Shown in pieces: positions 30,852-38,208 of a stretch of 64,000 bases of DNA. This stretch comes from an uncultured Acidobacteriota bacterium (GTDB lineage Bacteria > Acidobacteriota > Vicinamibacteria > Fen-336): positions 3,840,001 through 3,904,000 of the forward strand of contig OY970399.1 in the NCBI GenBank assembly GCA_963720545.1. The letters run 5' to 3'. How positions within the stretch are numbered: the stretch's first letter is position 1; each line of letters begins with the position of its first letter. The notes under the pieces are model-generated. The model searched no databases, was not told the origin of the DNA, and saw only the letters and a list, made by a program, of their open reading frames with translations. Made by a program: the position numbers and the translations under genes.

Positions 30852-30940
30852 GCCGGGGTGGCGAAGCTGGTAAACGCGCGGGACTTAAAATCCTGTGCCG
30901 CGAAAGCGGTTTGTGGGTTCAACTCCCACCCCCGGCACCA
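30852..30940 (+). tRNA. tRNA-Leu (TAA)
   Basis: GCCGGGG acceptor stem, CTTAAAA anticodon loop, long variable arm, GGTTCAAC T-loop, CCCCGGCACCA end. Confidence 0.95.
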
Positions 30941-30957
30941 CTTACGGCAATTCCGCC

Positions 30958-32202
30958 TCAATCGGTTAACTGCGTTTTTCCCGCTGCCGCACTATCCGCT
31001 TTAAGCAGGGCCGCCGCGTCTAGCTCCACCTGAGTCGCCGCAATCTCCGTGGCTATCGCGGCCGCCTCAACTGCTCCGACTCCGTCTGCCCTGGCCTGAT
31101 ACTCGGCCTCACCGCGCCGATCGCGCTTCTTCAGCGAAGGATCGTCGGCCACATCACCAGGCAGTTCGACTCTTAGTTCCTCGACAATCATCCGGACCCC
31201 CGAGGCGACAGGCAGGGCCAACAAAGCACCGAGGATTCCCAGTAACTTGCCCCCAACGACCAAGGCGATGATCACGACGGCTGAGGGGAGACGCAGCGCG
31301 TTGCCGTAAATGCGCGGGACCAGAAATCGATTTTCAAACTCCTGATAGAGGAGCAGCACAGCCAGCACCACCAGTGCCACCGTCGGGCCATGTACCAACG
31401 CGGATAGGACGGCCGGCCCCGCTGCTAACGCGCCCCCGATGTAAGGCAACACATCCGCAACGCCAGCAAAAACCGCGAGCGGAAGCGCATTGGGGACGTG
31501 TGCGACCCGCAGCACGACGAACGTAAAGGCTGCCATGAGGAGCGACGTGATCATCTGCCCACGCATGTACCCGCCCACGATCGTTTCCAGACCCAGCAAA
31601 ACCCGTGAGAGCCGCACATGGTAAGTGCGGGGAACCAAGGCGAACAGACCACCCCGCATGCGATCGCGATCAATCAACAGATAGAGCGCGAAAAAGGCGG
31701 CAGTAACAGCGCCGCCGACTATCTCGAGGATCTGCGGCGAGTACGTCAATGCGGCTCGGGCACCATTCGACAGAACTTCTGTCACGCGCATGCTTCGAAC
31801 AGCCTGCGCGAGTGGTGCTGACCAACGGTGACTCTCGAGATAGGCAGTCAATGCTGCCTGCGCCTTCGGAAGTTGAACCAGGATGTCCGATAGCTGAGAA
31901 AGAAGGCGCGGAATCGTTATGGCGATTATGAGGAGAGATGCCAGAGCCACGCCGCCAAAAACGATGGCAATCCCGAAGCCACGTGGAATCTGCCGACGCT
32001 CAAGCCACTTGATCATCGGGTTCAGCATCCCCATGATCATCAATCCCACGATGATGATGAGGAAGACTGGCACTAGCTGTACTACTAACCAGAGGCCCAC
32101 TGCGACGAGGGCGATGCGCAGCAGCGTGTCCGTCGTTATCTGGATGCGCGACGGCGTACTAGTGTTCTTTCTCCCACAATATATACCACGCGTGATATTC
32201 AC
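30958..32202 (-). CDS. AI-2E family (PerM/TqsA-like) transporter; start uncertain
   Basis: GGYMRGQ, LPYIGG, YQEFENRFLVPRIYG, GILGALLALPVA. Confidence 0.88.
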   Translation of the reverse strand: MNITRGIYCGRKNTSTPSRIQITTDTLLRIALVAVGLWLVVQLVPVFLIIIVGLMIMGMLNPMIKWLERRQIPRGFGIAIVFGGVALASLLIIAITIPRLLSQLSDILVQLPKAQAALTAYLESHRWSAPLAQAVRSMRVTEVLSNGARAALTYSPQILEIVGGAVTAAFFALYLLIDRDRMRGGLFALVPRTYHVRLSRVLLGLETIVGGYMRGQMITSLLMAAFTFVVLRVAHVPNALPLAVFAGVADVLPYIGGALAAGPAVLSALVHGPTVALVVLAVLLLYQEFENRFLVPRIYGNALRLPSAVVIIALVVGGKLLGILGALLALPVASGVRMIVEELRVELPGDVADDPSLKKRDRRGEAEYQARADGVGAVEAAAIATEIAATQVELDAAALLKADSAAAGKTQLTD

Positions 32203-32367
32203 TGCTCGTATCGCGCCTGCGTTGGTGAGATGTGTGGTTGTGACCTCTTCGCCAGTTTCTAATATTGGTCATTTTCTGCAGGAGCGAACTAGCCGAAATT
32301 CCCGGCAGCGCGTCTGGGTGATACCCCTCAATCGTGCGACAGTCCTCGCAGCTACCTTCCCCAAGTC

Positions 32368-32517
32368 CTATCTGACGGTCCTTCCGCCGACAAAGTGCAT
32401 TGCGAGAGAGACGAGAGCCACGAGCAATAGGATGTGGATCAGTCCGCTCGCGACGTGAAACACGGTAAAGCCGCCTATCCATGCAACTAAGAGAACGACA
32501 AAGAGCGTCATCCACAT
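32368..32517 (-). CDS. Small membrane protein, lmo0937/DUF5670-like (49 aa)
   Basis: Hand translation MWMTLFVVLLVAWIGGFTVFHVASGLIHILLLVALVSLAMHFVGGRTVR. Confidence 0.8.
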   Translation of the reverse strand: MWMTLFVVLLVAWIGGFTVFHVASGLIHILLLVALVSLAMHFVGGRTVR

Positions 32518-32653
32518 ACTCGTGAGCCTCACTTTTTCTTTTGCGGTATGGGTTCCACTGCGATGGTGAGCGAATGGCGGCTGCCGCCGCCATTCGCTTC
32601 CAAGTGTCGGGCGGTTATCCCGTAGCGTCGGGGGAGCCGCAAGACGAGTCGCG

Positions 32654-33202
32654 CTATGAGATTGTGGCGGTCGTCTCCTTCACCGATGCTTCACCGGTAG
32701 AGGAAACATCCTGGGCACCGGTCTGCTCAAGAATGTCCTTTGCACGTTCTCTCTCGGTAGAGCTGTCAGCGTGGACCGAAAGAAGAATCCCGCCGTCCTT
32801 GACCCGACCCTCATAACGTTTGGCTTCGTACTCGGGGATTCCCATTCCAATGAGCGCACCCGTGAGCCCGCCGACCGCGCCACCGACTCCCGCTCCTGCG
32901 AGTGCAGCCATGATGGGACCGGCGGCGATGAAGGGACCAAGTCCGGGGATCGCCAATGCGCCGATACCCGCCAACCACCCGAGCCCGCCCCCCAATACGG
33001 CGCCCGCGCCTGCGCCAGTCGAGGCACCTTCGGGCGCCTTGGTGTTCTTTTCGTGAGCGAAATCCTTAGTCCCTTCGCTGTGTGGGAACAGGACGGAGAT
33101 GTCTTCGTTGGAAAAGCGCCCCATCTTCAACGCTTCCACCGCATTTTCTACACTGGACTGGTCGGAATAGATGCCGAACACGGCCGTTTTGGTAACTGAC
33201 AT
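32654..33202 (-). CDS. General stress protein (YflT/17M-like, glycine zipper)
   Basis: AVFGIY, GALAIPGLGPFIAAGP, GIPEYEAKRYE. Confidence 0.85.
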   Translation of the reverse strand: MSVTKTAVFGIYSDQSSVENAVEALKMGRFSNEDISVLFPHSEGTKDFAHEKNTKAPEGASTGAGAGAVLGGGLGWLAGIGALAIPGLGPFIAAGPIMAALAGAGVGGAVGGLTGALIGMGIPEYEAKRYEGRVKDGGILLSVHADSSTERERAKDILEQTGAQDVSSTGEASVKETTATIS

Positions 33203-33226
33203 TTGGATGCCTCTTCTCTCTCTCAA

Positions 33227-33655
33227 CTACTTTTTTGGTTGAACTTCCAGTTCGCTAACGACTTTGTCCTTCCCAACTACCTCCGCGGCCTTCGCTTCGA
33301 TCGAGAGTTTTTCGGCATCTGACCTAACCGGCCCTTTGAGGGTTACGATCCCGTCCTGGGAAACGACCTTGACGTTGTGTGCGTATGTGGACAGGGATTT
33401 ATCCTTCACGACTGATTGGCGAATTTGCCGTGCAATCTTGAGATCAGAACGATTGTTCAACTGGTCGCTCGCTGTCGGCTCACCGGCTTTGCGGTCGCGC
33501 TGGTTCACCTTCGTATTGTCTGCAGCGGGCGCTTGGGTAGTGCTTGCGGGATCCTGCGCGGCCCTAGCGTTTTCCTGTGAAAACGCTGAAACCAAGCCGA
33601 TAGCAAAAACGCCAATGACTACGGCGCAGGCAGTTTGTCCGAACGTATATTTCAT
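33227..33655 (-). CDS. BON-domain (OsmY-like) exported protein
   Basis: Signal peptide, ADNT..N.RD, DKSLSTYAHNVKV...G.VTLKGPVRS. Confidence 0.88.
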   Translation of the reverse strand: MKYTFGQTACAVVIGVFAIGLVSAFSQENARAAQDPASTTQAPAADNTKVNQRDRKAGEPTASDQLNNRSDLKIARQIRQSVVKDKSLSTYAHNVKVVSQDGIVTLKGPVRSDAEKLSIEAKAAEVVGKDKVVSELEVQPKK

Positions 33656-33737
33656 CTATGTCGCTCCTCATTCCTTCCAGCAACGTGTGATGCTGGCTGT
33701 GAGTCGCCTAACTCGAATGACGACCCCCGGAGCAATG

Positions 33738-33753
33738 AGCAACAATCGAGCCA
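33738..33753 (-). promoter_or_regulatory. sigma54-type -24/-12 promoter for the BON operon
   Basis: TGGCTCG-ATTG-TTGCT against consensus TGGCACG-N4-TTGCW. Confidence 0.65.
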
Positions 33754-33988
33754 AGGAGTACGTCTGCGAGCGAACCCGCGGCGGTGGAGCGGCAGTCTGC
33801 CAGAGCGTTTTTCTACAGACGACATTCCTTTGCACGCTTGCGCCCTAATTGCTGACTCGAGTCTCTTCTTGGCTCACACCAGTCCGGGCTAGATAGCCCG
33901 GCGCAGACAAACGCATGGGCCGGGAAGAGCGAAGGCGTCATAGTGCTCCCCAAGGAACACCGCCCAGTACCCTTCAACAGAAAGCGTA

Positions 33989-34270
33989 CTAGTCCGCTGT
34001 GATCGGAGCGGCCGCGCCTTCCATAGTCGGGCTTTGCTTCGCAGCATCCTGGGCGCGAGATAGTCGCATAGTCGCTGTGGTGGGATCCTCTACTAGGCGG
34101 ATCTCAAACTTAAAGGCCGCGACGAACTTACCTTGCGACTCCACAACAACAATTTCCTGTCCATCTGGCAGGTACCTGACGCTAACAACCTTCCCGCAAT
34201 CGCCGCGAGCAACGGGAGGTGAGTCACGAAGAAACTCGACACGTAATCCCACAAGCGGATTGTGTTTCAT
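33989..34270 (-). CDS. SH3-like microprotein, paralog A
   Basis: VGLRVEFLRDSPPVARGDCGKVVSV; similar to three neighbouring ORFs. Confidence 0.6.
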   Translation of the reverse strand: MKHNPLVGLRVEFLRDSPPVARGDCGKVVSVRYLPDGQEIVVVESQGKFVAAFKFEIRLVEDPTTATMRLSRAQDAAKQSPTMEGAAAPITAD

Positions 34271-34553
34271 CGAGGAAGCTCCGGGTTAGGTTGGGGGGTG
34301 AACCTAAGCGACGGGCCAAAACGGGGTTTCGTGCTCAGGACACTCACCCTGTTCTAGCCCGTCAAGCAACGAATATAGTCACACCCGCGAAAATGGAGCA
34401 ATCAGGGAAATCCCGCACCCGGTCAGCGGAACGAAAGGGCATGAAGCTCGGGGCGGGCGTTTGCTAGGTCGATCCGCGGGACAGACGCTCTTGCCATACG
34501 ACAGAACGGCAAGTAGGTTGAAAATTGTCCTCCTCGAAACCTAGGCGTATGCA

Positions 34554-34766
34554 ATGGACGGCGTGCCCTCCCGGGGTCGCAGAGTAAAGCTACTAGTTGC
34601 CTTGACTCCAGCACCGTTAGGCGCTGTGTGTGTCGTAAAGAGCGAGTTCACCTATTCGGGTCGGCAGAGTCGAGAAGATGTTTTCCAACTCGTGTACGAC
34701 GGAACAACAATCAAAGCGTTCCGCAAAGAATTTGAGTTTGTTCCTTCGGAGACCGCGAAGCGTTAA
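34554..34766 (+). CDS. SH3-like microprotein, paralog B
   Basis: GRRVKLLVALTPAPLGAVCVV...YDGTTIKAFRKEFEFV. Confidence 0.65.
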   Translation: MDGVPSRGRRVKLLVALTPAPLGAVCVVKSEFTYSGRQSREDVFQLVYDGTTIKAFRKEFEFVPSETAKR

Positions 34767-34914
34767 GGCCTCCTGGGGTTGGCCCGGCGGCCAGGCATTT
34801 TCACCGAGAACTTGTCGTGACCGTTGACGCCGGGGTGTACAGTCCCCACCGTCTCTCCTGAGCCATCCCATACCGAGCTTCTCATCTGAAGGCATCGCCT
34901 TTTGAGGAGTGAAC

Positions 34915-35127
34915 ATGCTGAAGGGCTATCCGCCAAAAGGTACCAAAGTCAGATTCCTCACCGATGGGGTTCGCACCTTGCGGTTCATAGCCGCCGGCGA
35001 AACCTGAACGCTGATTTCGTCTCCGGACGGAGACATGAAAGAGCTTCCTCACGACTTATTCCTTGTCATGGACTGCCACGACAACATCGTGGTGGCTGAG
35101 CGCAAGGAGATCACCGAAGCAGAGTGA
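34915..35127 (+). CDS. SH3-like microprotein, paralog C, with in-frame TGA at 35005 (selenoprotein candidate or pseudogene)
   Basis: GAGGAG RBS; MLKGYPPKGTKVRFLTDGVRTLRFIAAGET*TLISSPDGDMKELPHDLFLVMDCHDNIVVAERKEITEAE; similarity to the paralogs continues past the TGA. Confidence 0.6.
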
Positions 35128-35141
35128 CGGGGCGGGGTACG

Positions 35142-35336
35142 CTAATCACTAGGCTTGGACTTGGGTGCTTGCTTGGGTTGGCGGGGCCGTTTGTAGGTAT
35201 GTTCCTTGACCCGCAGGCATTGAACAGTCTCCACATCAGCCGTGTCCGCCAGGCGCTGAGCCTTGCCGCCACACTCAGTGCACCTCTTCCAGCCCAGAAA
35301 CTCACCGAGGTTAACTGCCTGCGGCCCACGTCCCAT
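35142..35336 (-). CDS. Possible zinc-ribbon microprotein
   Basis: CTECGG ... CLRVKEH with a basic tail; start uncertain. Confidence 0.4.
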   Translation of the reverse strand: MGRGPQAVNLGEFLGWKRCTECGGKAQRLADTADVETVQCLRVKEHTYKRPRQPKQAPKSKPSD

Positions 35337-35466
35337 ACCCGCATCTTCTACGGGGGGATTTGACGCTACGCAAGACTCTTCAGGACCGCACACACTACTT
35401 TGCCCGCCCTGCCGCTTAGACCTGAGAGGAATTTTCACCAAGGTCCGTCCAGCGGCGCCTCGTCCG

Positions 35467-35482
35467 TGGCATCCAACCTGCA
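35467..35482 (+). promoter_or_regulatory. sigma54-type promoter, cassette 1
   Basis: TGGCATC-CAAC-CTGCA; conserved in the second cassette. Confidence 0.65.
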
Positions 35483-35516
35483 GTGCTGACCCATGAGAAT
35501 CCTAAAAGGGGCGTTC

Positions 35517-35693
35517 ATGGAACCTCGCACTTCAGATCCCGATGCAGAACCCGTTCCCCTCGACGACAAGCAGCCGAAGTACGGCGGCGTCAATCCCGGC
35601 AACACCAACAACGTCGATGAGCGTTTCTCGGATGACGTCGACGACGATGAAGACAATGACGAAGATCCGGGCGAGGCGGAACTGGGAGCGTAA
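35517..35693 (+). CDS. Acidic micropeptide, copy 1 (58 aa)
   Basis: MEPRTSDPDAEPVPLDDKQPKYGGVNPGNTNNVDER plus D/E tract; paralog at 36580. Confidence 0.7.
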   Translation: MEPRTSDPDAEPVPLDDKQPKYGGVNPGNTNNVDERFSDDVDDDEDNDEDPGEAELGA

Positions 35694-35750
35694 GAAACCA
35701 GGAAAGGCGTCGAGTATTTGCCCGCGCAGAATGAACAAGAGGGAAGAAAA

Positions 35751-35906
35751 TTGACGAAATGGCTGTTGGTTACAGCGCTAGCCCTTGGGCTGGCGGGTTG
35801 CGCCAGTGATCCGCCGGTGCCCCCAACACCGCCGGGAGACAACCTCCCATCGCCATCGCCTTCGCCAAAGCCAACACCGACACCCACGCCGCCATCGGGC
35901 CGGTGA
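35751..35906 (+). CDS. Pro/Ser/Thr-rich micro-lipoprotein, copy 1
   Basis: TTG start, lipobox LAGC, then ASDPPVPPTPPG..PSPSPSPKPTPTPTPP. Confidence 0.7.
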   Translation: MTKWLLVTALALGLAGCASDPPVPPTPPGDNLPSPSPSPKPTPTPTPPSGR

Positions 35907-35907
35907 A

Positions 35908-36108
35908 ATGGACAGGCTCGTAGGCGAACACGTCAAGCTGTTGGTCGGCGTCGCACCGTTGGTGAAGGGCACGATATGCGTTGTCAGGGATGTACTGACC
36001 TATCGAGGTGCGGAGTTGCCAGAGGATCCGCTGTTCTTGGAGCATGATGGAACACGGGTTACTGTGCTACGCCGAGATGTTGAAGAGGTGAACGCTCTCA
36101 TCTCTTGA
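35908..36108 (+). CDS. SH3-like microprotein, paralog D
   Basis: ATG 1 nt after the previous TGA; VGEHVKLLVGVAPLVKGTICVV...ELPEDPLFLEHDG..V.RRDVEEV. Confidence 0.68.
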   Translation: MDRLVGEHVKLLVGVAPLVKGTICVVRDVLTYRGAELPEDPLFLEHDGTRVTVLRRDVEEVNALIS

Positions 36109-36530
36109 CTAGCAACTTTGCTGGCGCCGATAGTGAAGTTCTTTTCGAAGCCGATGAACCTGTCGATTTGGGAGAGCCAACAGATCTGTTTTACCCCGCT
36201 CCTGTGGCGGTACGTGGGCCCCGTCCAACCGCCGAGCCCGTTACCCGTATTTTGAAATGGCGTAGCACGATCGGTTGATGTCGCCGATTTTTTGTTGACT
36301 ACATCTAGACCGCCATCCAGAGTGCGGGCGGTGGCTGCCTGCTGAAGGGGCCGGCCACCGAATGCTCGGTCCCTAGAGAATGCTCTCGCTACGGACCGGG
36401 CATTCTTTGCGTCGCCTTATCACGAGTCACGCTGCGCCAGCCTTTTATTCTTTTGTCCTTGGTGCGGCCGCCGGGTTTGTCGTGGCTCACCATTGCTCCA
36501 CGCCGCGCAGGTGCGCCAACCAACTCCTGG

Positions 36531-36546
36531 TGGCATCCAACATGCA
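36531..36546 (+). promoter_or_regulatory. sigma54-type promoter, cassette 2
   Basis: TGGCATC-CAAC-ATGCA. Confidence 0.65.
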
Positions 36547-36579
36547 GTGCTGCACGAAGGTAAACCCAAAAGGAGTGTT

Positions 36580-36780
36580 ATGGAACCTCGCACATCAGAT
36601 CCCGACGCAGAACCCGTTCCCTTCGACGACAAGCAGCCCAAGCATGGCGGCGTCAATCCCGGCAACACCAACAACGTGGATGAGCGTCTCGAGGCTGACG
36701 TCGACGACGATGAAGACGATGATGAAGATCAGGACGAGGACGAATCGGGAACGACAGAAACCAAGAAAGGCGTGGAGTAG
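36580..36780 (+). CDS. Acidic micropeptide, copy 2 (66 aa)
   Basis: AGGAG RBS; N-terminal 36 aa nearly identical to copy 1. Confidence 0.72.
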   Translation: MEPRTSDPDAEPVPFDDKQPKHGGVNPGNTNNVDERLEADVDDDEDDDEDQDEDESGTTETKKGVE

Positions 36781-36812
36781 CACCACGCCAAATGAAATAA
36801 GAGGAAAGCAAA

Positions 36813-36987
36813 TTGACGAAACAACTCCTGTTAATTACAGCGCTGGCCCTCGGGCTAATCGGCTGCGCCAGCAATCCGCCCGCGCCTGGCACGACGCCAG
36901 CAGGGAACGTTCCTTCTCCCCCCCTCGCCCTCGCCCTCGCCATCGGTCAGCCCGACGCCCACCCCCACGCCCACCTCTAACCGATAA
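36813..36987 (+). CDS. Pro/Ser/Thr-rich micro-lipoprotein, copy 2 (extra C in a C7 run at 36918-36924)
   Basis: TKQLLLITALALGLIGCASNPPAPG; removing one C restores PSPSPSVSPTPTPTPTSNR, which matches copy 1. Confidence 0.65.
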
Positions 36988-36998
36988 AGGGAGGAGCA

Positions 36999-37490
36999 AT
37001 GCCGGCTAAGACATCGAACGCTAGCAAGTCGCAACGCGGGACTGGAAAGCACGCGCTCGCGCTCCTAAAGAAGGACCACGAGACGGTTGCGGGCCTGTTC
37101 GAACAATTCGACAAAGCTAAGGAACCTAGCCGCAAGGCCAAGATCTTTAGCAGCATCAAGTCGGCGCTAGAAGTCCATGCGCGCATCGAAGAGCAGATCT
37201 TCTACAAGGAAGCCGAGAGCGAGGCGGGGCGTGAACTGCAGAAACAGCTTAAAGAGGCCCACGGGGAGCACGCCATCGTCAAGAAGTTGATGGGCGAGGG
37301 TGCCTCACTCGACCCGGACTCTGGTGAATTTGACGCTACCGTCGCCGGGCTGAAGGGGGCCGTCGAGCACCACGTCGAGGAAGAAGAAACGGAAATGTTC
37401 AAGGAGATCCGCAAGGCCTTCTCCCGCGCCGAGCTGCAGGAGATGGGTCAGCGTATGCAGGAGCTCAAGCGGAGTCTGCAGGCTCGATAG
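36999..37490 (+). CDS. Hemerythrin/HHE cation-binding domain protein
   Basis: LKKDH, HARIEEQIFY, EH, HHVEEEE..MF; GGAGG RBS. Confidence 0.88.
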   Translation: MPAKTSNASKSQRGTGKHALALLKKDHETVAGLFEQFDKAKEPSRKAKIFSSIKSALEVHARIEEQIFYKEAESEAGRELQKQLKEAHGEHAIVKKLMGEGASLDPDSGEFDATVAGLKGAVEHHVEEEETEMFKEIRKAFSRAELQEMGQRMQELKRSLQAR

Positions 37491-37593
37491 CGCCCACGGA
37501 CCGGTGTGCACGGCGTCGGCGTCAGAGGACTTGAGCCCGGTCTTTCCTTGACTGTTCCCGGCGTGAGCTAGATACCCCCACCCCCGGCACTAC

Positions 37594-38097
37594 TTACTGC
37601 TGTGGCGCCGAAGATTTCGCCTCATGGACAGACTCGTGGCCGTTCGCGTCGCGAATCGTCACCCGAACCACTGCCAGCAATACTGCGAACGTCTCGGGAA
37701 GGGAAGGATTCTGCTTTATCGAGACGACCGAAGTTGCCGGAATCTCGATGTTCTGCCTTGTCGGAATCTCGCAGGTTGACAGGTAGCCGGGCGAACAAAC
37801 GTGGGCGCTCAGTTGTTGGCCGGAAAACGTGGAATGGTACAAGACGTCGCCGGTGCGGTCGGTAACCGTCGTATCGAGGGCCACGATCGTGCCCGGCACG
37901 TTCCCCGAGGTGATGTTGGTTGTGAAATCGGCCCACAAGGTGAAGTGGCCGTGCCCGAAGAGGAACGTCAACCTGCCGATCGGATCCGGTGTAATGCTCA
38001 CTGAGAATTCGCCGGCGGGACCGGAAGGCGTGTCGTTCCCGCAACCTGCGAGGCCTATTGCCAACGCTGCCGTGGCTAATGCAAGCACCCTGATCAT
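37594..38097 (-). CDS. Hypothetical lipoprotein
   Basis: Lipobox LAGC, beta-rich; its stop codon lies inside the att repeat. Confidence 0.65.
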   Translation of the reverse strand: MIRVLALATAALAIGLAGCGNDTPSGPAGEFSVSITPDPIGRLTFLFGHGHFTLWADFTTNITSGNVPGTIVALDTTVTDRTGDVLYHSTFSGQQLSAHVCSPGYLSTCEIPTRQNIEIPATSVVSIKQNPSLPETFAVLLAVVRVTIRDANGHESVHEAKSSAPQQ

Positions 38098-38208
38098 GCT
38101 CACCCCCTGCGTTCAAGGGTAGTCGCCGAACGCGGCAAGCTGGTAATTGCCAAAACGCTTTCGTTCGAGATTTTGATTCGCTTAAGCTGCCAAACACTGG
38201 AGGCGGCC

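Follow-up and report, generated by a model that had tools for sequence, protein, structure and literature searches.

Bacterial selenoproteins have been found almost only through the pairing of selenocysteine (Sec) with Cys in redox families. A criterion set out in PMC1088965, in its treatment of such pairs, calls for two or more homologs with Cys at the UGA position and for a share of TGA/Cys pairs above 50%, and the bacterial deiodinase-like selenoprotein family is among those covered there. Passages on the limits of bSECISearch are found in PMC12013277 and PMC9312934, and the evolution from Cys to Sec is taken up in PMC1794560. According to the passages on E. coli fdhF in PMC8659212, the upper stem-loop of its SECIS lies 11 nt from the UGA, spans about 17 nt and carries a G in its apical loop.

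Here, we analyzed a 70-codon open reading frame (ORF) whose codon 31 is an in-frame TGA. It lies in a 64,000-nt stretch (the window, C1:3840001-3904000) of a single-contig genome of 4.09 Mb with 68.7% G+C; coordinates given below without a contig prefix are those of the window. An original prediction, made from the letters of the window, had proposed that Sec is inserted at this codon, and had named a single nonsense change as an equally simple explanation. Overall, our analysis depicts the locus as a plausible but unproven case of a recoded UGA.

Results

A single coding frame continues across the internal UGA

The candidate ORF extends from 34915 to 35127 on the forward strand and, judged by its translation, codon score and structural model, would encode an SH3-like microprotein. 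A Shine-Dalgarno-like GAGGAG (34904-34909, +) can be read 5 nt upstream of the ATG at 34915, the in-frame TGA, which is the candidate Sec codon, occupies 35005-35007 (+), and the translation ends at a terminal TGA at 35125-35127 (+). The ORF, its ribosome binding site and the internal TGA on which the original prediction was built are all present in the sequence. An internal ATG at 35035-35037 (+) corresponds to codon 41, and the second half has been annotated from there as a 30-aa protein (P0005).

In a codon model, each half had its top log-likelihood in the frame of the candidate ORF (5.2 and 15.3 bits), with negative scores for the remaining forward-strand frames. Antisense ORFs over the region were rejected, being negative in the same model with one exception, a frame sharing wobble positions with the second half, which reached 2.5 bits as compared to 15.3 bits for the sense frame. 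Rfam returned no match for 34500-35500 at E-values up to 10, and no promoter or terminator was found in a scan of 34300-35600.

The surrounding sequence is a low-GC islet of about 7 kb (30852-38150; 55-60% G+C vs 68.7% for the genome), which begins directly after a tRNA-Leu(taa) gene (30852-30940) and in which no integrase was seen. Its genes encode an AI-2E transporter, a DUF5670 protein, a YflT/ActD-like protein, a BON-domain protein and a hemerythrin, together with small SH3-like genes. A tandem duplication (35466-35854 and 36530-36919, at a spacing of about 1064 nt and with 71-88% identity) carries a module encoding an acidic 66-95-aa protein and a short lipoprotein-like ORF. On the reverse strand, a 99-aa ORF (35142-35441) is convergent with the candidate ORF, the two stops being 15 nt apart. 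Most of the 13 differences listed for divergent contigs of runs X1 and X6 (35198-35265) are in one codon phase, which corresponds to the third positions of the 99-aa ORF; on this sequence comparison, the 99-aa ORF is probably a real gene under selection.

The candidate belongs to a small family with a predicted SH3-like fold

Searches of large databases placed the candidate in a small, rare family of microproteins whose lengths lie around 65 aa (about 62-71 aa) and whose sequences start with 'MLKNDPPSGTKVRFL'. For two members of its subfamily, the DNA was obtained from metagenome contigs (L044 and L045) by means of a degenerate DNA pattern, a search in which the JGI contig of the database protein P0019 was not among the matches. 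In a sample of 400 genomes of the class, subfamily matches were confined to two genomes (G182 and G364), both with Gly at the site of the UGA. No ortholog of the candidate ORF was found in 60 relatives (best E-value 0.07) or in 58 other genomes of the host's family, and a search for related loci in collections of genomes, metagenomes and viral contigs gave no match. Neither Pfam nor NCBIfam holds a family for the candidate ORF or its paralogs, and solely on this absence do we regard the protein family as undescribed; the protein atlas returned only unnamed clusters, plus a DUF3104 lead at 0.89.

Two paralogs flank the candidate ORF on the same strand: P1 (34554-34766, +; 70 aa), with a Cys codon, TGT, at the aligned site, and P2 (35908-36108, +; 66 aa), which likewise has Cys there. 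P3 (33989-34270, -), a small and more distantly related paralog from this superfamily, is present in three genomic copies, of which the one at C1:745063 matches the P1/P2 profile with an E-value of 4.2e-7. Genes of the P1/P2 type occur in this genome only, among 401 searched. The other P1/P2/P3 clusters of the genome are located close to tRNA-Lys genes (C1:743840 and C1:4089371).

Because a tblastn search of the candidate ORF against its own genome returned only itself (next match at an E-value of 5.2), the link to the paralogs could be drawn only by profile comparison. Aligning the candidate subfamily with P1/P2 by hhalign gave a probability of 96.4% and an E-value of 1.4e-9 over residues 9-71. 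The similarity to the paralogs that had been claimed to continue past the TGA is therefore borne out by this profile-profile alignment, which also puts codon 31 on the Cys column of P1/P2.

Based on 27 aligned sequences, AlphaFold2 confidently predicted an all-beta single domain (pLDDT 89.3, pTM 0.76) with strands at residues 11-14, 18-20, 23-25, 30-35, 48-52, 58-62 and 66-68. Foldseek matched the model to SH3 domains with query-normalised TM-scores of 0.53-0.71 and a best E-value of 0.016, and VIA-align gave Z-scores of 8.3-6.2 for the best 50 rows, with SH3 and KOW barrels among the top matches. The model thus suggests an SH3-like small beta-barrel, a likeness at the level of the fold only, as a Z-score below 8 implies no function. 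Since both halves of the ORF supply strands, 30 residues on their own would not make up a domain.

The profile search also linked residues 23-41 to long repeat proteins whose blades read 'G..GTIL.S.DG..W' (11 of 15 matches; E-values of 2e-8 to 8e-4). These matches cover the segment flanking the UGA and the 'SSPDGD' encoded by the hairpin described below, and may reflect either shared ancestry or a common beta-hairpin motif.

The DNA upstream of three homologs (L044, L045 and L055) is conserved and encodes '...Y(F/V)VNYQ(K/N)KVF'. On L044, it forms the end of a 188-aa membrane-like ORF (L044:1008-1574, -) that overlaps the start of the homolog, and this contig also carries a 320-aa ORF which, by eye, we take to be transposase-like. 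The '...Y(F/V)VNYQ(K/N)KVF' partner is absent upstream of the window's copy.

Small residues occupy the site of the UGA

The 14 full-length homologs of the candidate's own subfamily (12 rows of alignment A5, together with L055 and L056) are all uninterrupted across the site and would each form a single polypeptide. Nine of them have Gly and five have Ala at the column of the UGA, and none has Cys; for three of the Gly residues the codon is known from DNA (GGC, GGT and GGT). Among the 14 paralog-type rows of A5, two of which are duplicates, the column holds Cys in 10, Gly in three and Phe in one. Gly or Ala in the subfamily and mostly Cys in the paralog-type rows indicate that the site accepts small residues, and as Cys is tolerated in most of the latter, Sec should fit as well.

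The pairing of TGA with Cys on which the original prediction relied hence holds for P1/P2, to which hhalign aligned the codon, but does not extend to the candidate's own subfamily. With Cys in 10 of 28 rows overall, the candidate falls short of the TGA/Cys share in the criterion given in PMC1088965. The lack of a redox CxxC-type context, which had already been pointed out, was borne out: neither a CxxU or UxxC motif nor a redox family (Pfam, NCBIfam) was found.

The host uses Sec

All four components of the Sec machinery that the original prediction had proposed to look for are encoded in the host genome. The tRNA-Sec (selC) scored 67.4 bits (cut-off 47) and was called SeC with anticodon tca by ARAGORN, and selB (357 bits), selA (523 bits) and selD (343 bits) each exceeded their curated cut-offs. 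Only one of the 48 tRNAs of the genome, the tRNA-Sec, has the anticodon TCA, and no other suppressor tRNA for UGA was found among them.

Two genes show that Sec decoding is in use in this host. The first is a deiodinase-like gene (C1:401472-402152, corresponding to L058:173-853) with the motif 'FGSCTUPPF', a TGA at C1:401754 and a match to PF00837 of 121 bits. The second is a BCP-type peroxiredoxin gene (approximately C1:2575497-2575946, L067) with the motif 'FTPGUTSE' and a TGA at C1:2575617; it was recognized by NCBIfam peroxidase models, the best of which gave 70.7 bits, below their equivalog cut-offs. The SECIS of the deiodinase-like gene has a spacer of 14 nt, a stem of 7 bp and a GUG loop starting 21 nt past the UGA; in the peroxiredoxin gene, a spacer of 9 nt is followed by a stem of 8 bp and a GUU loop that starts 17 nt past the UGA.

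We further screened the whole genome for TGAs with 28 open codons on each side, a coding score on both sides and, finally, a downstream hairpin. Open flanks were found for 21,873 TGAs; requiring a coding score on both sides left 145, and adding the hairpin left 10. As only two of these 10 survivors are recognizable selenoproteins, namely the deiodinase-like and the peroxiredoxin gene, the pattern of a UGA followed by a hairpin is by itself weak evidence. A molybdopterin oxidoreductase gene with three TGAs (C1:2511819-2513066, -; L046) was rejected as a Sec gene: its catalytic Cys is present, and the TGAs fall in a short out-of-frame stretch which is a frameshift or an assembly error.

A SECIS-like hairpin lies 11 nt downstream of the UGA

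A SECIS-like stem-loop (35006-35047, +) is the predicted minimum-energy fold of the sequence following the UGA. Its core, GUCUCC-GGAC-GGAGAC (35019-35034), is separated from the TGA by a spacer of 11 nt (35008-35018) and consists of an upper stem of 6 bp (35019-24 with 35029-34) closed by the loop GGAC (35025-28), which begins 17 nt after the UGA. Below the upper stem, TTTC (35015-18) pairs with GAAA (35037-40), and further pairs (35006-12 with 35042-47) reach back into the UGA itself. Spacer, stem, TTTC/GAAA extension and the G at the start of the loop all agree with what the original prediction had read from the sequence, and the folding calculation that it had suggested returned this hairpin as the structure of minimum energy (-15 kcal/mol, z about -2.0 to -2.1); 5-6 of 200 shuffled sequences reached an equally good fold.

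To put this into context, we defined a hairpin class with at least 6 Watson-Crick pairs, a loop of 3-8 nt with G among its first two bases and a loop start 14-34 nt past the codon. Genome-wide, 4.6% of all 78,847 TGA triplets are followed by such a hairpin, compared with 1.8% of positions within the local low-GC islet, so that the overall chance level of 1.8-4.7% makes the feature uncommon, yet not rare. The minimum free energy of the 36 nt after the TGA is ordinary, being equalled by 23% of positions in the islet and 51% in the genome. What is uncommon is the defined stem-loop pattern only, and not the plain folding energy. The spacer of 11 nt falls between those of the two verified SECIS of this host (9 and 14 nt), but the GGAC loop contains a G and not the GU that opens both of their loops (GUG and GUU), a difference measured against two comparators only.

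Strain variants keep the UGA and the frame around it

Protein databases hold four distinct N-terminal halves of the candidate, each of which ends after '...AAGET', i.e. at codon 30: P0020, which is this genome's own copy, P0003 (K8R), P0021 (R13K) and P0019 (K8R, D17A, V19I and R23Q). C-terminal halves called from Met41 are represented by P0005 and by P0018, which stems from another contig and differs by four conservative changes. The sequence is present in studies of soil and rhizosphere. At the DNA level, we compared contigs of four runs (X1, X5, X6 and X13), those of X6 and X13 missing the TGA. Both contigs that span codon 31 keep the TGA: a 554-nt contig of run X1 is identical across the candidate ORF, and a 277-nt contig of run X5 (depth 4.8) aligns to 34939-35133 with 88% identity. 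A stop at codon 31 is accordingly common to five distinct variants (P0020, P0003, P0021, P0019 and the X5 contig).

The original prediction had named three observations that would speak against it, and none of them was made. The Sec machinery is present, the TGA is common to close variants and not unique to this copy, and a read error is excluded by the X1 and X5 contigs and by the database proteins from other contigs that end at codon 30. Its proposal to look for orthologs with TGA or Cys at the site gave a divided answer, with TGA found in the strain variants, together with the hairpin in X5, and sense codons for Gly or Ala in the 14 full-length homologs.

The X5 contig differs from the window at 23 positions in 195 nt, without indels and without a new stop, and the segment 35005-35035, which comprises the TGA and the core of the hairpin, is invariant. 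For this 31-nt stretch, permutation gave P 0.011 for the segment itself and 0.083 for an invariant stretch of at least this length anywhere in the span. Third codon positions hold 11 of the 17 listed differences (binomial p 0.008). Upstream of the TGA (codons 21-30), five synonymous changes and one non-synonymous change correspond to a pN/pS of 0.07 (Fisher p 0.002); downstream of it (codons 32-62), five changes of each kind correspond to a pN/pS of 0.27 (Fisher p 0.035), and two Leu codons are preserved there via double changes. Two other frames gave a pN/pS of 0.35. On the thin basis of one low-depth contig of 277 nt, these substitution patterns indicate selection on the coding frame on both sides of the TGA.

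A second Cys codon, TGC at 35074-35076 (+), encodes Cys54 within 'MDCHDN' and is confined to the TGA-bearing lineage. Cys54 is found in all three C-terminal variants of this lineage (the window copy, P0018 and X5), and Cys is present in this loop in none of the 14 sense-codon homologs (12 A5 rows, L055 and L056).

Two further contigs bear on neighboring sequences. One of them, from run X5 (151 nt, depth 2.2), connects 34584 directly with 35056 and skips 471 nt (34585-35055), thereby losing most of P1 and, out of frame, the first 47 codons of the candidate; the junction may stem from a true deletion in a variant or from an artefact of assembly. The other, a metatranscriptome contig of run X13 that has adaptor ends, spans paralog P1 (34554-34806) with one difference and stops short of the candidate ORF, which may hint at transcription of P1 or at carried-over DNA.

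Discussion

A possibly recoded UGA and its competing explanations

Read-through of the UGA in some form fits the data best, and Sec is the most likely decoding, since the host uses Sec, the hairpin is spaced like a SECIS and the genome has no further tRNA that would read UGA. In such a model, the candidate ORF would give rise to one 70-residue SH3-like beta-barrel protein, its UGA codon 31 being decoded and not terminating. The host SelB and tRNA-Sec would decode the UGA with the hairpin 11 nt downstream acting as a bacterial SECIS, and Sec would be placed at a small-residue position that is held by Gly or Ala in the subfamily and by Cys in the paralogs. Two steps, the binding of SelB to the candidate hairpin and the insertion of Sec, are ones that we infer. 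The claim of Sec insertion in the original prediction has thus gained from the machinery, the shared TGA and the selection on both sides, and has lost through the weaker Sec/Cys pairing and the loop without GU. With a deviating loop and no close homolog that carries Cys, Sec is well short of shown, and we consider its insertion at codon 31 a serious possibility that falls somewhat below an even chance.

The alternative that survives best is a plain nonsense allele, in which a Gly (GGA) or Cys (TGY) codon has turned into TGA, leaving a pseudogene or a 30-residue fragment next to a coincidental hairpin. A single base change from GGA to TGA would be enough, the site is a sense codon (for Gly or Ala) in each of the 14 full-length subfamily homologs, and a hairpin of the defined class is expected by chance at 2-5% of positions. 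The absence of a redox motif or family, the location within a low-GC accessory islet and the X5 deletion contig, according to which the gene may be dispensable, point in the same direction. However, the stop is common to five variants, one of which is about 12% divergent in DNA, and the X5 contig combines the lack of indels in 195 nt with low pN/pS values on both sides of the TGA. In this single variant contig, none of the signs of a decaying pseudogene (a pN/pS near 1, indels or further stops) was seen. Moreover, a 30-residue fragment would be without strands 48-52, 58-62 and 66-68 and most of strand 30-35 of the seven in the model, so that the constraint upstream of the TGA would be difficult to account for if the remainder of the protein were not made. 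A nonsense change, which the original prediction had rated as equally simple, is hence favored by the sense codons in the homologs and disfavored by the stop and frame kept in the variants, and we regard it as unlikely, though to be taken seriously.

The same conservation would be expected if the UGA were read through independently of a SECIS, that is, as a leaky codon misread by a near-cognate tRNA (Trp or Cys), perhaps with help from the hairpin and without selenium. Leaky read-through has a low yield, and Trp is the usual misreading of UGA. This explanation would account for a loop that lacks the GU of the true SECIS elements of the genome, but a bulky Trp would be ill-placed at a Gly/Ala/Cys site, and the genome offers no suppressor tRNA, TCA being the anticodon of tRNA-Sec alone among the 48. 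We therefore judge SECIS-independent read-through to be improbable, and give slightly less credence still to explanations other than Sec, a nonsense allele, SECIS-independent read-through or a split gene.

A split gene, in which translation stops at the UGA and restarts at the ATG at 35035 so that two 30-residue peptides form the barrel, could draw on the record of both halves as separate 30-aa proteins for this genome (P0020 and P0005), on the start of P0018 from another contig at Met41 and on a GGAG 2 nt before the ATG, but it is the least likely of these explanations, as this GGAG is just 2 nt from the ATG and inside the hairpin stem, codon 41 is not Met in P0002, P0008 and P0025 (L044), and in X5 the ATG is replaced by AGC, hence is not a conserved start, with no in-frame ATG, GTG or TTG between codons 32 and 51, so that the second half cannot start separately there.

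Returning to decoding of the UGA as Sec, the most far-reaching form of this reading would be a new selenoprotein family with a fold other than that of thioredoxin, in which Sec31 at a structural Gly/Ala position and Cys54, acquired in the same lineage, could form a selenylsulfide or a metal-binding switch. Judging by the order of strands in the model, residues 30-35 would pair with 48-52, and Sec31 and Cys54 could thus be close. We consider this far-reaching reading rather improbable. If the UGA is decoded as Sec at all, it would follow that a non-redox fold can fix Sec at a small-residue site without a catalytic role, and that homology-based screens overlook selenoproteins of this kind. If the UGA does not encode Sec, the locus would represent a premature stop that is conserved and followed by a SECIS-like hairpin in a host that uses Sec, and thereby a useful test case for false positives of SECIS predictors.

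Comparison with known systems

The closest points of reference are the two selenoprotein genes of the host itself. Like the deiodinase-like and the peroxiredoxin gene, the candidate ORF has an in-frame UGA, a small hairpin 9-14 nt downstream of it and homology that continues beyond the UGA; all three have a short apical loop with G as its first base, and the host encodes selA, selB, selC and selD. In contrast, both host selenoproteins have a thioredoxin fold with Sec at the position of the catalytic Cys, whereas the candidate is predicted to be SH3-like with the UGA at a Gly/Ala site, and its loop reads GGAC where theirs read GUG or GUU.

With the fdhF SECIS of E. coli, as far as it is described in the passages of PMC8659212 cited above, the candidate hairpin shares the distance of 11 nt, the length of about 17 nt and the G in the apical loop. 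Unlike the E. coli element, it has no bulged U in its 5' arm. If the fdhF loop is read as GGUC, the position matching U24 is an A in the candidate GGAC.

At the level of the protein, the model resembles SH3-like and KOW small barrels (NusG KOW, PsaE, NdhS and eukaryotic SH3 domains) over about 50-63 residues, and differs from them in that the candidate has no detectable sequence family. Finally, a single premature TGA, a sense codon in the more distant homologs and the location in a low-GC islet are features that the locus has in common with nonsense pseudogenes in accessory islands; what sets it apart from these is that both the stop and the frame are kept across diverged variants, in which the substitutions fall mostly on third codon positions.
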